Shown here: one piece after another, positions 341 to 7,579 of the stretch
Position numbering within the stretch: the stretch's first letter is position 1
How the letters are laid out: the number at the start of each line of letters is the position of its first letter
IMG/VR virus record: IMGVR_UViG_2541047124_000022
Reading direction: 5' to 3' (one strand)
Length of the DNA stretch: 14,871 bases
DNA from: a virus
Lineage: Duplodnaviria > Heunggongvirae > Uroviricota > Caudoviricetes
Notes under the pieces: generated by a model
Told to the model about the DNA's origin: nothing
Database searches by the model: none
Seen by the model: the letters and a program-made list of their open reading frames with translations, nothing else
Made by a program: the position numbers and the translations under genes

Positions 341-417
341 TGGCGCGTTGTACTGGAGTCGAACCAGTGACCGATTGCTTAGAAGGCAATTGCTCTGTCC
401 GGCTGAGCTAAAAACGC
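341..417 (-). tRNA. tRNA-Arg, anticodon TCT (reads AGA), CCA encoded
   Basis: Reverse complement folds as a 77-nt cloverleaf: acceptor GCGTTTT/ACAACGC (one U.C mismatch at 6-67), D arm GCTC/GAGC, anticodon stem ATTGC/GCAAT with loop CTTCTAA, T arm ACTGG-TTCGACT-CCAGT, discriminator G, CCA. Confidence 0.85.
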
Positions 418-430
418 AGAATACCGATAA

Positions 431-507
431 TGGACCGCCATCGGGGACCCGAGCCCCGCGCAGCCAGCTTCGAAGGCTGGCGCTCTGTCACGATGAGCTA
501 ATGGCGG
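431..507 (-). tRNA. tRNA-Arg, anticodon TCG (reads CGA), atypical D and T loops, CCA encoded
   Basis: Reverse complement: acceptor CCGCCAT/ATGGCGG (7 perfect pairs), D stem GCTC/GAGC, anticodon stem CCAGC/GCTGG with loop CTTCGAA, T stem CGGGG/CCCCG, discriminator T, CCA. D loop lacks GG and T loop is CTCGGGT rather than TTCRANY, so it may be a phage-type or degenerate tRNA. Confidence 0.65.
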
Positions 508-514
508 TATGTGA

Positions 515-564
515 TGGTGGCCCTTGCTGGATTTGAACCAGCGACCTGGCGATTATGAGTCGCT
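515..564 (-). pseudogene. 5'-truncated tRNA with CAT anticodon (tRNA-Ile2/Met type); only nt 27-76 retained
   Basis: Reverse complement gives anticodon arm AGCGA-CTCATAA-TCGCC (4 of 5 stem pairs; first pair A-C mismatched), variable AGGTC, T arm GCTGG-TTCAAAT-CCAGC, acceptor 3' strand AAGGGCC, discriminator A, CCA. The expected 5' acceptor strand GGCCCTT and a D arm are absent; the sequence at 565-600 is unrelated and AT-rich. Confidence 0.6.
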
Positions 565-712
565 CTCATCATTTAGCTAAAATGGCTGGGGGAGTGATGA
601 TACATCAGTCACATTAAACATGAAAACAAAATGGTTTTAGGTGAAATACAAAAAGAATAGTGATTAAATATCAAATGGATATGCTTTAAATCTAACCACA
701 GTAAGGACGAGT

Positions 713-2609: not shown

Positions 2610-3466
2610 TATTCACACTCCCCAACCAGATTGAGAATGACCGCTGCACCGTCGTCTTCCATGCATTCACCCTTACCACTTGCCAGAAACCAGCGGCACA
2701 CCTCCACGGCTTCAGCGCGTGTCACCGGTTTGATAGTTGCCAGCAATTTTTCAAGGTAGCGCTCCCGGTCATATACTGATTCGTGATGCTCAGAGTAACC
2801 AAACTCATCGCCCTGTTCTTTAGTTGCAGTGTGGCGAACACTGTAGAGCCAGTCCCAGTAAACGAACTCGCGAACAACATCAGACAGCGTATAAGGCTCA
2901 GGCAGCACATCGCGATATCCATCAACAAATGCCCGACGCTGTTCATCAATTTCGTTCATGCGGCTGCCGCCAATGCTTCCGGCTTTTTTCTCTGCCGCAG
3001 TCCAGCCCCAGAGATGATCGTTGATAAATTTCTGGGAAGACCTGATGACCCGCTCTGCTTCCACATCTTCGAGCGCTGCTTCATAGCTACCAAACGTAGC
3101 CCTGACTGATGCCGCTTTTTTGATGTTCTCCCGGGCGTTCCTGATAACCTGCGCAGGGTTATCCATGCCGATGATGCCGAACGCAACCTGGAAAGGTTCG
3201 TAACCATTCGCCAGCAGATAACGCGAATAGCGTTCCTGAGCCTCTTTTGGGGAAATTTTAATTTTCACCAGCGCAGCCTCAGCAGCATCCAGATGTGCGG
3301 GTTCGTTCAGACGGATAACCTCCAGCACCCAAAGATAAGCATCAGTCTGCTTATGCCCGGTGATTCTCCGTTGCTCTGGCAGGGGCTTGATGTTTGCGAG
3401 GGCGGAGCTGTACGCTGCCGTCGGGATGGTGAATAGTGCTTTATGTTCGTTGTTATCAGTACGCAT
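2609..3466 (-). CDS. Hypothetical protein, 285 aa, in the replication operon
   Basis: Long ORF translationally coupled at both ends (TAATG overlaps with primase stop and zinc-finger gene start). No recognisable motif. Confidence 0.75.
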   Translation of the reverse strand: MRTDNNEHKALFTIPTAAYSSALANIKPLPEQRRITGHKQTDAYLWVLEVIRLNEPAHLDAAEAALVKIKISPKEAQERYSRYLLANGYEPFQVAFGIIGMDNPAQVIRNARENIKKAASVRATFGSYEAALEDVEAERVIRSSQKFINDHLWGWTAAEKKAGSIGGSRMNEIDEQRRAFVDGYRDVLPEPYTLSDVVREFVYWDWLYSVRHTATKEQGDEFGYSEHHESVYDRERYLEKLLATIKPVTRAEAVEVCRWFLASGKGECMEDDGAAVILNLVGECE

Positions 3467-4434
3467 TACGCAACCGCCTTTTTCTTATGGAAAACCAGCT
3501 CTCGAACCTGATCACCGTTCATGAGCATATTGTTGAAATCATCGTGATCCGGCCAGTACACGCTCACGCGCTGCAGGTCATTCTTTGCCATCAGATTGGC
3601 ATGAGCACATTCGCAAGCCGCAGCCAGCCCGGTGGCGCTGTTCTCGTCACGGTCGGCAAAAATAATCAGGTGCAAAACACCAGTTGGTACGCGGAACTTT
3701 TTCATAAAGCCGCTGTTAATGGTTGCCCAGGTGTTCACGTTATAAATCTGGTGCGCTGACAGCGCTGTTTCGATGCCTTCGGCGATACCCAGAGTGCTGG
3801 CGACAGGAAACATGCGGATAGCTACAGAACGAGCGTGATCCAAATAGTTATCTTCCTGCAGGGATTTGAGGCGCTTTGCACTGCTACCGATATCTGCTTT
3901 TTTATCACCATCAAGCAGAGTCTGGTGCAGATAGCACAACTCCCCTTTATCGTCCGTAGCAAGTGAATAAAGAGACTGGAACACACTCCCGTTGTGTCTC
4001 TGCCTGGCATTGAACCGGATCGCCTCAGCAGGAAGACTGAATATTCCACGAGAATTAAGATACGCTGCGCCGGATGTACCACGCAGTGCCTCCAGTTTTG
4101 AAAACTTGCTCAATACCCGTTTGCGTAAGCTGGTGGCGCTGCTGGTTACCGGGATTTTAACCCGTTGGTAATCATTACCGATCAGGCGGTCTATTTCGGT
4201 ACAAATCTCGTTAAATGGCTTCGCCTGTGTCAGGGTGACAAGTTTCATACCATCGCCACTACCACATACACAGATCCACGTTCCTGCACCGTCGCGGTCG
4301 TCAATTCGGAACTTGCCACGTGCACCGCATACCGGGCATTCACCCTTGAAGTGATTTTTTCCGGTTATCGGCGGCAGACCGAAGTGCTCTAATATTTCAG
4401 GCCAGCGGCCTTTCGCTGCATCTGCTGTTTTCAT
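3466..4434 (-). CDS. DNA primase, zinc-ribbon plus TOPRIM type, 322 aa
   Basis: N-terminal CPVCG...CVCG zinc-binding motif; acidic TOPRIM-like motifs (IAEGIETALS, IFADRDENSATG); start 1 nt after helicase stop. Confidence 0.8.
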   Translation of the reverse strand: MKTADAAKGRWPEILEHFGLPPITGKNHFKGECPVCGARGKFRIDDRDGAGTWICVCGSGDGMKLVTLTQAKPFNEICTEIDRLIGNDYQRVKIPVTSSATSLRKRVLSKFSKLEALRGTSGAAYLNSRGIFSLPAEAIRFNARQRHNGSVFQSLYSLATDDKGELCYLHQTLLDGDKKADIGSSAKRLKSLQEDNYLDHARSVAIRMFPVASTLGIAEGIETALSAHQIYNVNTWATINSGFMKKFRVPTGVLHLIIFADRDENSATGLAAACECAHANLMAKNDLQRVSVYWPDHDDFNNMLMNGDQVRELVFHKKKAVA

Positions 4435-4435
4435 C

Positions 4436-6094
4436 TTACTGACTCAGACTGTTTATATTTTTCTGGAGTTGGTGCTTTGCCTGCATGATGCGCCAGGCCT
4501 CACTGCCTGCCGGTATCTCACGTCGTTCATCACGTTCCTGAGATAAATCAATCGTTGTTTGTGCGTTTTCAGTGACCTTCTGAACCCGCTGGTGGCCTTT
4601 GGCAAACCGGATCAGTTTGTGTCTGATGTAGTTATTTACCTCAGGGGTAATTTCCATCGGAAAGTTACTCAGTCCGTCAGGCCACTCGCCGAACTTTTCC
4701 CGGAAAGTGTGAGCACACCATCCGTCACTGACTGGACGCCCCAGCGAAGCACGCTGGCGCTGATAAAATTTGATCTGACTCCACCAGGACTGTTTCTCTG
4801 CCTTCGTCGACTGATGCTGATTTTTACCCAGCTTATTAAGTTTGCGGCTAGTGTCAGTATCAACGTCTTCACCTCGCAGCGGCTTGTGTCCACATTTCGG
4901 GCAAACATAGACGCCTGCTGGCTTCATGTAGTGGCATTGAGGGCATTCATGTGGCAGTTTTTCGGCCCGTTCCTCAACTGCCCGGCGCGCGCTTTCCTCC
5001 ATGCCGTCAGACTTACCGGGAAGCTCGTCGTACTCGATTGAATCCGGATAACCCAAACGGTGCACGGTGCCGCTGTGATCGAAGATAAGGCAGGACTCTT
5101 TACCCGGTGCGGTGCGAAGCCCACGCCCGAGAGCCTGCAACCAGCGAATTTCGCTTTTTGTTGGCCTGGCGTAGATGATGCAACGAACGTCACTATCGAA
5201 TCCGGCTACCAGAACGCCCACACTAACGATGATTTTCGTTGCACCAGTTTCAAAGCGGTGAATGATGGTCTGGCGCTCATCTACCGGAGTATCTGCGGTC
5301 ATTACCTCAGAGTTAACACCTGCGAGGTTAAACTGGATTGTCAGGTAATTGGCGTGGGCTACGTTGACGCAGAAAGCGATGGTAGGTAGATCCCGACCAT
5401 TCTCCAGCCAGTTCTGTACAATGTCGCCCACCAGCGTAGAGCCGCACATGATTTCAGCCAGCTGTGTTTCGTTGTAATCGCGGCCGTACTCAAGCGAAGA
5501 TGTGGTTTTAACACCTTTCAGATCCGGCTTAGTTGGCGCGTAAAATTCGTATTTACTCAGATCGCCACGCTGGATTAACTCGCCGATGGTGGTCGGTTTA
5601 ATCAGTCGGTCATAGTATTTGCCCAGGAACGGGGAAAACGGAGTACCCGACAGGCCAATCACCTTTACGCCTTTGCCGCGCAGACGTTCGATATCCTTCA
5701 GGATGCGTTTTTTACGCAGGTGCGCTTCGTCGATAATCAGCAGATCGATATTTTCAGGAAAAACACGACGAATAAGCGTATCAGCGCTGGCAATCTGAAT
5801 TTTCCGGTCCGGATCGTAGTTCGGGTGATCCGCCCAGATATAACCGATTTCATCTCCAGGTAAACCATACTGCACGAACCGATTAGCCGTCTGACCAATC
5901 AGGATGGTGTACGGAACACAGAACAGAGCGCGCATACCACGGCTGACAAAACCAGCAACTATGAAGGCTGCCAGACCCGTTTTACCGCTACCTGTTGGCG
6001 AATACACCATGAAGGTGTCGTTTGCCTTCCAGTCACGGCGCAACATGTTTAGCGCTCGTTCCTGTGCAAAATTCGGCGTGATCGTCAGCTCCAT
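4436..6094 (-). CDS. Superfamily-2 DEAH-box helicase, 552 aa; candidate replicative helicase
   Basis: Walker A SPTGSGKT; Walker B LIIDEAH; C-terminal zinc ribbon CPQC...CPKCGH; GGGAG SD 7 nt upstream of ATG. Confidence 0.85.
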   Translation of the reverse strand: MELTITPNFAQERALNMLRRDWKANDTFMVYSPTGSGKTGLAAFIVAGFVSRGMRALFCVPYTILIGQTANRFVQYGLPGDEIGYIWADHPNYDPDRKIQIASADTLIRRVFPENIDLLIIDEAHLRKKRILKDIERLRGKGVKVIGLSGTPFSPFLGKYYDRLIKPTTIGELIQRGDLSKYEFYAPTKPDLKGVKTTSSLEYGRDYNETQLAEIMCGSTLVGDIVQNWLENGRDLPTIAFCVNVAHANYLTIQFNLAGVNSEVMTADTPVDERQTIIHRFETGATKIIVSVGVLVAGFDSDVRCIIYARPTKSEIRWLQALGRGLRTAPGKESCLIFDHSGTVHRLGYPDSIEYDELPGKSDGMEESARRAVEERAEKLPHECPQCHYMKPAGVYVCPKCGHKPLRGEDVDTDTSRKLNKLGKNQHQSTKAEKQSWWSQIKFYQRQRASLGRPVSDGWCAHTFREKFGEWPDGLSNFPMEITPEVNNYIRHKLIRFAKGHQRVQKVTENAQTTIDLSQERDERREIPAGSEAWRIMQAKHQLQKNINSLSQ

Positions 6095-6205
6095 TGTGCA
6101 GCTCCCGTGCTGATGAGATAATAATTTTGTGATGTGGTTTTCATGGATTCCCCCTCACATGGCTGGCGGCCTCCCCAAAGGCTGCCAGCCCCCTTCCGAA
6201 TCAAC

Positions 6206-6568
6206 TCACTTAAATTTCGTCGCACGAATAACGTCAATTCCGTTCTCGCTATATCGAAGAGGGTGCTTACCGTCCCTGAGCAGGACAAAACCTGACATCC
6301 CCTCAGGTAGCTGAGCCAGCTTCATCAACGAACGGTTGCGGGGAGAATTCTTATCGACCTCAATGGCACACTGCTGGCCGTCTGATGATGTAACCAGGCA
6401 ATCAATAAACCCTTTACGACCACCGCTAATGCTGAAATTGCGTTGCAGGTGGTATCCCTGAGACTTGATTTTTTTCTGCATCACATAATCGAAAACGACT
6501 TTGTCATCGGAGCGGATGAATTGCTCTTCCAGGAGAGCGATTAAATTTTGCTTCAGGTCTTCACTCAT
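6206..6568 (-). CDS. Hypothetical protein, 120 aa; possible PD-(D/E)xK / VRR-NUC-like nuclease fold
   Basis: ORF upstream of the helicase in the same operon; segment GFIDCLV...CAIEVDK resembles a nuclease core but is not diagnostic. Confidence 0.5.
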   Translation of the reverse strand: MSEDLKQNLIALLEEQFIRSDDKVVFDYVMQKKIKSQGYHLQRNFSISGGRKGFIDCLVTSSDGQQCAIEVDKNSPRNRSLMKLAQLPEGMSGFVLLRDGKHPLRYSENGIDVIRATKFK

Positions 6569-6583
6569 ACTTTTTATCCATCT

Positions 6584-6761
6584 TGTACTAGCTTTCTGGT
6601 ACAGTCGTTTTTTCAGGGGTATCCCCCTTTAGATCGAGATCTACCTAACCTATGTACCCGTCTGTTGGAAAAGCCTGTTCCAGTGCTTCGCACTAACACA
6701 CGGGCACTCCTCCCCCTCCCCTCCTCTCACTGAATTTTGCGTGTACTCCTTAGCTAGTACA
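6584..6761. repeat. Perfect 10-bp inverted repeat (TGTACTAGCT / AGCTAGTACA) about 158 bp apart, enclosing GTAC-centred repeats and a 22-nt polypyrimidine tract; candidate origin or regulatory region
   Basis: Arms at 6584-6593 and 6752-6761; further GTAC motifs at about 6598, 6652 and 6741; CTCCTCCCCCTCCCCTCCTCTC at 6707-6728. Confidence 0.4.
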
Positions 6762-6816
6762 CAAATGCAATGAGATTTGGGATTCAGCCACCGGACACCT
6801 TTAAGCCCGGTACCAA

Positions 6817-7110
6817 TCAGGAGCGCGATTGCGTTCCTGCCAGGGGCGGCTGAGTTGTATACCCCTGTAAAGCTCTGCCCTGATTTCTCACAAACAAGCG
6901 GAGCCTTGTGTTTGCTTCGTGCCTTGCTCTGTTCTCCTTGCGGAATGAAACAGGCTCAGCGTCAAAAGTGATTTCGTATACCTCCGCATATTTCAGGGCG
7001 ACCTTCCGTCTCAGTGACGGAGGCAGCCCCTGTAACTGCTGCTGAATCCACTCTTCGTCTGCCTGGCAGTACCTAGATGGCATTTCAACCCTGACTAAAT
7101 CCTGTTGCAT
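6817..7110 (-). CDS. Hypothetical early protein, 97 aa
   Basis: ATG 3 nt after the upstream small ORF stop; position between cro-like gene and replication genes. No recognisable motif. Confidence 0.55.
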   Translation of the reverse strand: MQQDLVRVEMPSRYCQADEEWIQQQLQGLPPSLRRKVALKYAEVYEITFDAEPVSFRKENRARHEANTRLRLFVRNQGRALQGYTTQPPLAGTQSRS

Positions 7111-7113
7111 GGC

Positions 7114-7233
7114 TTACTCTTCCCGCTTCGCTATGAGGTTATAAACCCCGCTGATCGGGTCATACCATATGCTGCGTGGCAGCAGCTTCTGGAAGTAGCG
7201 CGGATCTGGCATTACGGTTGACTGTTGTGACAT
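7114..7233 (-). CDS. Small hypothetical protein, 39 aa
   Basis: ATG at 7233 with AGGTG SD 4 nt upstream, starting 7 nt after the cro-like stop. The longer tracked ORF (to 7347) overlaps the cro-like gene in another frame. Confidence 0.35.
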   Translation of the reverse strand: MSQQSTVMPDPRYFQKLLPRSIWYDPISGVYNLIAKREE

Positions 7234-7240
7234 GTCACAC

Positions 7241-7441
7241 CTAACTATTTGTTTTCCGTAATGGAGAAAAAATGAGGCTCTCTTTAGATAATTTGAGGGT
7301 TGGTGAAACTTTAGATACCGCTTCCTCAATTCTTTCAGCCATTGCAACTGAGGGGCGCCTAAAACCCAGAGCCATCTGGTTCAGGTATGCAACGCTAGTC
7401 CCAGATAACTGTGCCAGCCGCCTCCATTCATCCGCGCTCAT
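7241..7441 (-). CDS. Cro-like HTH regulator, 66 aa
   Basis: ATG at 7441 preceded by AGGAG; HTH-like segment WRRLAQLSGTSVAYLNQMALGFRRPSVAMAERIEEAV; divergent from the CI-like gene across an operator-rich region. Confidence 0.6.
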   Translation of the reverse strand: MSADEWRRLAQLSGTSVAYLNQMALGFRRPSVAMAERIEEAVSKVSPTLKLSKESLIFSPLRKTNS

Positions 7442-7579
7442 GACTCCTCTGATTGAGAGCAATACACTGGACATAAAAAACCCCATACTGTATTGGTTAT
7501 TAGCAACGTGCTAACATTAGCACATGAGATCACAATACAGCAATACGCTGTAAAGCATTTAGCTAACAATGAGACAAGC
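7442..7579. promoter_or_regulatory. Right operator/promoter region between divergent cro-like and cI-like genes
   Basis: Palindrome TTAGCA-ACG-TGCTAA at 7500-7514; half-site TTAGCAC at 7517-7523; self-complementary TTAGCTAA at 7559-7566. Confidence 0.55.

Follow-up and report, generated by a model that had tools for sequence, protein, structure and literature searches.

The 14,871-nt stretch of tailed virus DNA considered here (IMG/VR record IMGVR_UViG_2541047124_000022; hereafter the window) comes from a lambda-like prophage and covers its early region; the nearest phages are Escherichia phage phi467 and Salmonella phage Fels-1. The rightward early operon lies on the minus strand and contains, in this order, a cro-like helix-turn-helix (HTH) gene, a gene for a 97-amino-acid (aa) protein (p97), a 248-bp gap, a gene for a 120-aa protein (p120), a superfamily 2 (SF2) helicase gene and a Toprim/zinc-ribbon primase gene. 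The gap holds a conserved non-coding module, the structured and conserved part of which reaches 6839, i.e., into the final codons of p97. The module is previously undescribed, widely conserved and part of a replication system of medical relevance. It is probably a replication origin, since it always stands before the helicase-primase pair of numerous enterobacterial prophages, among them many Shiga toxin phages, and its most conserved part matches the G-run block at which mitochondrial DNA replication is primed. Our tentative proposal, held with somewhat less than even confidence, is that a prophage replicon consisting of p97, a RadD-like helicase and a Toprim primase has its cis-acting origin at 6584-6839, and that this origin is aided by transcription through an R-loop or a hybrid G-quadruplex. 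The analysis was entirely computational (sequence comparison, folding and searches). It shows the anatomy of the element, its conservation, strand asymmetry and covariation, and its linkage to replication genes, and the proposal, origin activity and every mechanistic step included, is inferred from these.

Homologous regions were gathered in three independent ways: via p120 (11 loci, from Salmonella, Yersinia, Edwardsiella, Buttiauxella and others), via an exact 15-nt DNA motif searched in IMG/VR (approximately 70 true matches among 120) and via p97 (80 loci, 78 of which were used for the conservation counts; this sample is unbiased by any DNA motif). Approximately 150 related loci with a homologous element were found, and by each route the element always has a p97 homologue on one side and the helicase-primase pair on the other, as in all of the approximately 80 loci found by DNA motif. 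In the p97-route sample it follows p97 in 78/78 loci, and the helicase motif was seen in 65 of these 78, the remainder being mostly loci that are too short. A preliminary description of the region, made from the window alone, had noted its adjacency to helicase-primase genes and its non-coding character. Both hold at the homologous loci, where the region again precedes the helicase-primase pair and has no conserved open reading frame (ORF). A hidden ORF or pseudogene running across the G-rich tract was considered and rejected, the reading frames being without a conserved start.

The sole universally conserved feature of the element is a pair of G runs. In the window the pair is GGGGAGGGGG (6712-6721, minus strand), a G4-A-G5 variant lying within the purine tract GAGAGGAGGGGAGGGGGAGGAG (6707-6728, minus strand), which is on the non-template strand. 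A pair of the form G4-8 N1-3 G4-8 was found in 78/78 loci of the p97-route sample, on the non-template strand in every locus, and it has a single occurrence in the window. As the pair varies in run length and spacer and yet is always present, selection seems to act on a property and not on sequence identity. The 22-nt pure pyrimidine run previously noticed at 6707-6728 is confirmed, as are the runs GG, GGGG, GGGGG and GG on its purine strand; no other purine or pyrimidine run in the window exceeds 13 nt, and the expected number at a length of 22 nt is 0.004. This tract had been called unusual, and in fact it contains the one feature common to all loci. Across the relatives it is composed of 39% G and 11% C, compared to 27% and 25% in the neighbouring coding sequence, and the C-free stretches have a mean length of 39 nt vs. 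14 nt. A canonical four-run G-quadruplex motif is found in about half of the variants. The GC-skew profile displayed nothing beyond the local skew of the tract.

The commonest phage form of the pair, GGGGGGTAAGGGGGG, is the exact complement of the second conserved sequence block (CSB-2; also CSB II) of gecko mitochondria, AAACCCCCCTTACCCCCC (PMC6295329), and when the literature was searched with the motif sequences, the sole sequence matches were papers on mitochondrial control regions. At CSB II, the nascent G-rich RNA and the non-template strand form a hybrid G-quadruplex/R-loop, from which the primer for mitochondrial DNA replication results (PMC3488243), and transcription is halted there with mitochondrial and T7 polymerases alike (PMC4176368). 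Two tracts are the minimum for a CSB II-type hybrid structure (PMC4176368), and in its letters the phage element preserves just this minimum, in the same orientation as CSB II. The likeness comprises two G runs, a 1-3 nt spacer, the non-template strand and a location in a transcribed non-coding region. There are differences as well: the phage element would be transcribed by a bacterial multi-subunit polymerase, whereas the mitochondrial polymerase is single-subunit, the window variant (G4-A-G5) is shorter, and the core, the hairpin H1 and the flanking repeats described below are without mitochondrial counterparts. The resemblance is short and of low complexity and cannot reflect common descent. 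The universal presence of a CSB II-like pair on the non-template strand makes it directly testable whether priming by a hybrid G-quadruplex/R-loop, so far best documented in mitochondria, is used by bacterial viruses.

The same facts might be read differently, the element being a transcription attenuator at which a hybrid G-quadruplex causes a pause or stop and limits the expression of the helicase, the primase and the antiterminator Q, with no role in DNA initiation. The transcription stop at CSB II speaks for this, and so does the position of the element, which has the early regulators before it and the genes for replication and late control after it. We consider it improbable, since it leaves the core, the flanking repeats and the exclusive link to the replication module unexplained and since it needs Escherichia coli RNA polymerase to terminate at G-run pairs, whereas the cited stops are those of mitochondrial and T7 polymerases; the window runs (G4, G5) are also short.

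The second most conserved part of the element is a 17-nt core, CATAGGTTAGGTAGATC (noted also as CATAGGTTARGTAGATC), at 6638-6654 on the minus strand. It is exact in 9 of the 11 p120-route loci, which span 47-100% protein identity, and it is found within three substitutions in 74/78 p97-route loci, 45-58 nt downstream of the G-run pair. The core includes one of two GATC sites (6638-6641 and 6632-6635) previously pointed out as a pair. Both are present in the window; of the two, the first is kept in 53/78 loci, and the second is not conserved, being confined to a subset. Between the tract and the core there is a stretch of small hairpins (6662-6694, minus strand), consisting of AGUGC-GAA-GCACU at 6682-6694, for which L010 and L127 have the compensatory AGCGC-GAA-GCGCU, and UGGAA-CAGGCUU-UUCCA at 6666-6682; the conserved CTTTTCCAACAG at 6662-6673 forms the end of the stretch. 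On the other side of the core, also on the minus strand, the hairpin GGGGGAUACCCC (6616-6627) is followed by an A run (6607-6614), and at this site one arm is G-rich in the relatives and the other contains C, with a loop or tail rich in A (in Fels-1 GGGCA-gaaataaaaaaa-TGCCC).

The conserved centre is flanked by repeats. The perfect 10-bp inverted repeat noticed earlier is indeed fully complementary (6584-6593, TGTACTAGCT; 6752-6761, AGCTAGTACA); when the region was shuffled 500 times, 3 shuffles contained an inverted repeat of at least 10 bp, and so did 5 of the 118 other 248-bp windows of the sequence. The claim of at least five GTAC-centred repeats also stands, with six GTAC at 6585, 6599, 6654, 6743, 6757 and 6810, compared to 0.66 expected from the window rate (Poisson P = 6e-5), the top GTAC density in the 14.9-kb window. 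The inverted repeat belongs to two 20-bp TGTAC-N10-GTACA sites lying 158 bp apart, an upstream palindrome, pal1 (6742-6761), and a downstream one, pal2 (TGTACCAGAAAGCTAGTACA, 6584-6603), neither of them assigned to a strand. The description of the repeats as iteron-like needs correction: the GTAC sites are two palindromes and not an iteron array, and unrelated motifs replace them in other subfamilies. GTAC-N10-GTAC palindromes are found on both flanks in the A type, the B type and several others, and other subfamilies have unrelated direct-repeat motifs on both flanks, GATGNCTAAA, TTTAGACGTCCA or GTGAAATAATT, some relatives carrying 2-4 dispersed copies of other flanking motifs. In pal1 the arms are conserved and the centre is free (46 distinct GTAC-type variants). 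The pal2 half-sites are GTAYYA in relatives, and the B-type hairpin is imperfect on both strands. Such subfamily-specific flanks look like a swap of protein-binding specificity. The GTAC sites were also considered as CI/Cro operators, and this identity was rejected, the operator region of the window having TTAGCA..TGCTAA and no GTAC sites. The flanking repeats AGACGTCT, AGACGTCC-AGACGTGA and GGTGTCT-GGATGTCT occur at L010, L127, L128 and E-type loci; we take them to resemble tandem 8-bp MetJ boxes (AGACGTCT), possibly by coincidence.

Mosaic joints occur both within the element and next to it. In L128 a GTAC-type pal2 is joined to a different left half, and L009 and Fels-1 have the N-terminal half of p97 in common with differing flanking motifs. 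These joints are what would be expected if the element were simply a recombination boundary, its blocks being kept for exchange between mosaic modules and having no function of their own. This is very unlikely to be the whole explanation, as the compensatory changes in the hairpins H1 and H0 (see below) indicate selection on structure and the constant presence of the G-run pair, despite variable run lengths and spacers, indicates a selected property.

The genes which follow the element are those of a replication module. The helicase (4436-6094, minus strand) and the primase (3466-4434, minus strand) are downstream of it in every sufficiently long locus. The helicase is RadD-like (PDB 6jde, E = 2.6e-19; NCBIfam RadD, E = 4e-26) and resembles RecG and PriA more weakly, and by this class assignment it is predicted to be a monomeric enzyme acting on branched DNA (forks, D-loops, R-loops) and not a ring helicase. 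The distance from the core to the helicase start spans +134 to +780 nt, and the helicase retains its own conserved leader with a 19-codon upstream ORF beside its start codon; the variable distance and the separate leader suggest that the element is a self-contained unit and not a translational leader of the helicase. It is followed by p120, by a homing-endonuclease-like ORF (in two relatives) or by nothing. The two ORFs are 208-219 aa in length (L127, +88..+679; L049, +125..+779, relative to the core) and resemble HNH/NUMOD homing endonucleases by eye only. p120 is absent from B- and E-type relatives, in which a remnant of its 5' end is retained, TTCTTCCTGGAAGAGTGA in L012, L034 and L058 (approximately +90 to +115 from the core), corresponding to CTCTCCTGGAAGAGCAATT at 6519-6542 of the window. 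The remnant suggests a deletion of p120 in these relatives and not an insertion in the window lineage.

More distant relatives show what else may occupy the position before the helicase. In Vibrio phage 1.115.A and Pseudoalteromonas phage HS5 the helicase is 56-58% identical and is followed by the primase, and directly upstream of the helicase there is a RepL gene, in front of which lies AT-rich non-coding DNA carrying 4-5 direct repeats. From its make-up, RepL with this repeat array would be a textbook initiator-plus-iteron origin. Neither p97, the G-run pair nor the core is present in these two marine phages. Position is thus what the element shares with RepL lytic replicons (the P1 RepL/oriL type, as in 1.115.A and HS5), directly upstream of a homologous helicase-primase pair, and the content is wholly different (RepL with 4-5 direct repeats in AT-rich DNA vs. 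p97, the G-run pair and the core). A RepL cassette upstream of the homologous pair suggests that the slot before helicase and primase holds an initiation cassette, which the enterobacterial phages fill with p97 and the G-rich element.

These observations would also fit an ordinary protein-initiated origin, in which a phage or host protein binds the flanking sites and melts the DNA, the G bias and the hairpins being by-products of Rho safety in a long untranslated gap. Repeats which differ between subfamilies and are placed on both sides of a conserved centre agree with it, as do the 158 bp between pal1 and pal2 (approximately 15 helical turns), the RepL gene with its repeat array at the same position in the marine phages and the structure of pal2, the conserved half-sites and imperfect hairpin of which suit the binding of double-stranded DNA. 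Repeated sites with dyad symmetry are shared with iteron origins such as lambda ori, P4 ori and RSF1010 oriV, and the map position agrees with that of lambda ori, which also belongs to the rightward early operon and follows the gene of the cII slot where the replication genes begin; lambda ori also needs nearby transcription. In RSF1010 a helicase and a primase of its own are likewise accompanied by hairpin signals specific to one strand. Lambda ori, however, is inside the O gene and has four iterons and an AT-rich stretch, whereas the phage element is intergenic, has two flanking sites and neither an AT-rich stretch nor a recognisable initiator. An iteron origin would be expected to have an array of at least three direct repeats bound by its own initiator, an AT-rich unwinding element and a cognate initiator gene that changes in specificity along with the repeats; the window has the two palindromes 158 bp apart, and an A run of 6-9 nt is all there is by way of an A/T feature. 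The motif type is matched by no variation in any of the three linked proteins, and the avoidance of Rho explains neither the G-run pair at a fixed distance from the core (78/78 loci) nor the fixed loop of H1. For these reasons a protein-initiated origin of the ordinary kind appears rather unlikely.

Two hairpins missing from the preliminary description, H0 and H1, are strand-specific and covary. H1, TACCGGGC-UUAAAGGU-GUCCGGUG, is at 6789-6812 on the minus strand (loop 6797-6804) and begins 5 nt past the p97 stop; in every subfamily having H1 it starts 5-10 nt past that stop. A fixed 8-nt loop, UUAAAGGU, is combined with a freely varying stem: among 38 distinct variants 93.6% of the cells are paired, compensatory changes are seen in five of the seven pairs, and the covariation is 0.676 vs. 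0.31 in shuffles, none of the 500 shuffles reaching 0.676. In slid registers the pairing falls to 28-49%. On the sense strand there are 35 G-U cells, which are A-C mismatches on the opposite strand, and H1 is therefore considered a sense-strand structure, either RNA or single-stranded DNA. The B-type relatives and L007 have two tandem copies of H1, and the Eru1-type relatives are without the canonical loop. The loop sequence is found twice elsewhere in the window, outside any hairpin context and once inside the integrase gene. H0, CAGGAACGC-AATC-GCGCTCCTG (6818-6839, minus strand), overlaps the final codons and the stop of p97. In spite of lying in coding sequence it covaries, its stem compensating between relatives (CAGGATCGC/GCGATCCTG, CAGTAGCG/CGCTACTG, CCGGATC/GATCCG; 52 distinct variants folded), and it is missing from a few variants. 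The sense RNA folds with -93.9 kcal/mol (z = -4.8) and the antisense with -70.1 kcal/mol (z = -3.2). Both hairpins are on the strand that an R-loop would displace, and their covariation and strand specificity point to a role of the transcript or of a displaced single DNA strand. A single-strand initiation signal (G4-type, phiX-type, ssiA/ssiB of RSF1010) would be a strand-specific hairpin that a primase or primosome recognises on single-stranded DNA; H1 and H0 may be of this kind, although sequence comparison does not separate such a signal from an RNA structure.

The p97 gene (6817-7110, minus strand) is always directly upstream of the element. The protein has an invariant arginine-rich helix, ENRARHEANxRLR, and AlphaFold models it, with low confidence (pLDDT 63), as a bundle of three helices. 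Nothing significant was found for it in Pfam, NCBIfam or a PDB sequence search, PHROGs gave only phrog_852 of unknown function, and a Foldseek fold search against PDB returned no match with E below 5. In the Eru1-type clade, in which the canonical H1 loop is missing, the helix is RKGNRARRSAN instead of the RKENRARHEAN seen elsewhere; that the change of the helix and the loss of the loop are a single joint change is suggestive only.

A small protein with an arginine-rich helix beside a fixed-loop, variable-stem hairpin in an early operon recalls lambda N with nut and the put sites of HK022, and a boxA-like CGCTCCTGA precedes H1 (by eye). The element may accordingly be a regulatory RNA only, a structured part of the early transcript in which p97 binds H1, as lambda N binds boxB, and by antitermination, Rho protection or processing/stability sets the expression of p120, helicase, primase and Q. 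The fixed loop and covarying stem of H1 with its sense-strand G-U cells, its start 5-10 nt past the p97 stop wherever it occurs, the covariation of H0 within coding sequence, the better folding of the sense strand and the invariant p97 helix, together with the clade in which an altered helix coincides with loss of the canonical H1 loop, are all in favour of it. Also in its favour, Eru1 phages are reported to be without an N homologue (PMC8044961). The composition of the tract fits too. G-rich, C-poor RNA is a poor substrate for Rho.

Several observations make this regulatory RNA explanation doubtful, although it is the main rival of the proposed origin. Unlike in the N/nut system there is one site in one operon, and no second, nutL-like hairpin was found in the leftward operon of the window. 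p97 is encoded just upstream in the same operon and not at the start of the left operon, it has no detectable similarity to N, its model is of low confidence, and the H1 loop has 8 nt and is not GNRA-like. No sense-strand terminator that would need read-through was predicted in the region or downstream, and the stretch from cro to the helicase showed neither a promoter nor a sense-strand terminator. What is most conserved, namely the G-run pair and the 17-nt core, is sequence without pairing. RNAalifold found 0 pairs common to G tract and core across subfamilies; the GTAC stem at pal1 was all that it recovered. The idea that one RNA fold spans the whole element was rejected on the same result, and a longer stem enclosing pal1 proved to be mostly an effect of composition (z = -1.3 vs. 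flank shuffles). Repeats on both sides that differ between subfamilies are atypical of an RNA element, and the next start codon follows at varying distances. Searched with Rfam 15, the region had no match at the gathering score and, with E up to 10, only two chance eukaryotic matches; five loci of other subfamilies had no match either.

A small RNA can be imagined as well, either one that is antisense and comparable to lambda oop or a different one transcribed from its own promoter. The location after the gene in the cII slot presumably recalls that of oop, and on the plus strand pal2 is a hairpin followed by a T run and looks like a terminator. However, this look-alike is not conserved, and an RNA containing the pyrimidine tract could not be ended by it, because on the plus strand it precedes the tract on the 5' side. 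No plus-strand terminator was found inside p97, no sigma-70-like promoter was found on either strand in a scan of three subfamilies, and the G-U bias favours the sense strand. Of all the explanations considered here this one is the least credible.

The transcription-aided origin which we tentatively prefer could work as follows. Early rightward transcription would cross the element on the window minus strand, as the gene order suggests. At the two non-template G runs the purine-rich transcript would stay paired with the C-rich template, in an R-loop or, as at CSB II, in a hybrid G-quadruplex with the displaced G-rich DNA strand. The duplex would be opened in this manner without an AT-rich unwinding region, and the outcome would be either an RNA 3' end serving as a primer or a displaced strand for the loading of helicase and primase. 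The core, 45-58 nt downstream, may be a recognition or transition site, and the subfamily-specific flanking repeats, here the two GTAC-N10-GTAC palindromes, may bind some specificity protein. H0 and H1 would fold in the transcript or in the displaced strand, and the arginine-rich helix of p97 may bind H1. As expected of an R-loop origin, the element belongs to the minus-strand early operon and has its G-rich side on the non-template strand, transcription being deduced from gene order. In an estimate with nearest-neighbour parameters, RNA:DNA hybrid energy minus duplex energy reaches its lowest value in the whole window, on either strand, at the tract (-13.8 kcal/mol per 30 nt, z = -4.5). At the origins of ColE1 (RNA II) and T4 (oriF/oriG), DNA synthesis is started by a host-polymerase transcript that remains hybridised there, with no need of an initiator or AT-rich melting region, and in ColE1 the folding of the primer RNA decides on hybrid formation and G-rich RNA pairs with C-rich DNA. 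The phage element has no sequence similarity to these R-loop origins; unlike in ColE1, no antisense regulator RNA was found, and the transcript would be part of a long operon mRNA and not a dedicated primer RNA.

A number of points weigh against a transcription-aided origin. An AT-rich unwinding element is missing and the region has 48% GC, which is the window average; no DnaA box was seen (by eye), there are only two copies of the flanking motif in the window and no iteron array, and no O-, RepA- or RepL-like protein is present, though some other protein elsewhere in the phage may act in this way. The flanking motif type tracks none of p97 (both halves), the helicase (including its variable C-terminal tail) and the primase, as judged from the sliding-window identity of the three proteins followed by inspection of the helicase tail and the p97 halves, and it therefore points to no binding protein. 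The window's own variant is without the canonical four-run G-quadruplex motif, and the 15-nt match to CSB-2, being in low-complexity sequence, may be due to convergence or chance. The strand-specific covariation of H1, and less strongly of H0, beside an arginine-rich protein suits a function at the RNA level at least as well. The origins of lambda-like phages are often inside the initiator gene, and the true origin could be inside a neighbouring gene. In our searches, which included Eru-type phages and P13374, no paper or database record describing an origin for these phages was found. In PLSDB no natural mini-replicon was found; the one plasmid match examined turned out to be an entire phage genome, and the remaining matches are records of 37-150 kb or more. 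Everything listed in the preliminary description was confirmed at the coordinates given, and its candidate origin is supported in part: the linkage to helicase and primase has been upheld and strengthened by the self-contained nature of the unit and by the RepL cassette at the same place in distant relatives; iteron array, AT-rich region and DnaA box are lacking.

The origin and the regulatory RNA need not be mutually exclusive, because the mitochondrial block is both a primer-forming site and a regulated stop. They can be joined in a bolder and rather doubtful scheme, according to which the Eru1-type Shiga toxin 2a (Stx2a) phages of outbreak enterohaemorrhagic E. coli (EHEC) and the rest of the family would replicate without a classical initiator: a CSB II-like R-loop or hybrid G-quadruplex would prime synthesis or load helicase and primase, and p97 bound to H1 would switch between read-through and primer formation, like mitochondrial TEFM. 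If this were true, it would be a bacterial-virus counterpart of the priming at the mitochondrial heavy-strand origin.

The output of Shiga toxin depends on the replication of the phage genome. The helicase described here is found in 191 phage records, mostly Stx2a-converting or other Escherichia phages, and the element is present in Stx2a phage VT2phi_272, the gene set of which matches the Eru1 type. As toxin output is tied to replication, a defined cis element would be a concrete target for work on phage induction and toxin dose. Neither of the two surveys in which the Eru replication types were defined and the Eru1-like helicase-primase modules of Shiga toxin phages were classified gives an origin (PMC8044961, PMC8951638). 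The region is without annotation in each of the 58 E. coli genomes that have it. Among phage records, 6 of 10 leave the element unannotated and in 4 of 10 it is overlapped by an annotated helicase or hypothetical-protein coding sequence (CDS), the helicase call being the overlapping feature in one record; recognition of the element would allow these records to be corrected. Four Klebsiella phage records have a 'hypothetical protein' feature under the match, and in phage Fostie (L216, 1441-1729) tiny opposite-strand ORFs, which appear spurious, are annotated across the element.

A second conserved non-coding piece is found at 6085-6205 (minus strand), between the p120 stop and the helicase start. 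It contains a hairpin, GGCTGGC..GCCAGCC, and the 19-codon upstream ORF (MKTTSQNYYLISTGAAQWS*), the stop of which overlaps the helicase ATG. The piece is retained immediately before the helicase in B-type relatives, and it is the second-best R-loop-prone spot of the window.

p120 (6206-6568, minus strand; 120 aa, phrog_1347, function unknown) is an optional gene between the element and the helicase. A loss of its N-terminus is not indicated by its offset PHROG match, because the full-length matches are 120-124 aa, and a relationship to RepL was rejected, no similarity being found. p120 and its distant homologues have the pattern D..(A)IE.(D/K) (GFIDC...CAIE), resembling the PD-(D/E)xK nuclease motif, with no support from Pfam or NCBIfam.

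Elsewhere in the window the plus strand carries the repressor, the leftward genes and the integrase. The cro slot (7114-7486, minus strand) has two overlapping candidate ORFs of 77 aa (7114-7347) and 81 aa (7241-7486), of which only the 81-aa ORF has a weak HTH match. The primase is followed on its 3' side by a gene for a 285-aa protein, the Q antiterminator gene and a tRNA cluster, in this order, a layout which we take to be typical of Stx-type phages as regards the tRNA cluster downstream of Q. The cluster (341-586, minus strand) comprises tRNA-Arg(tct), tRNA-Arg(tcg) and a third, weak tRNA-like match at 518-586, which was found by Rfam and not by ARAGORN.

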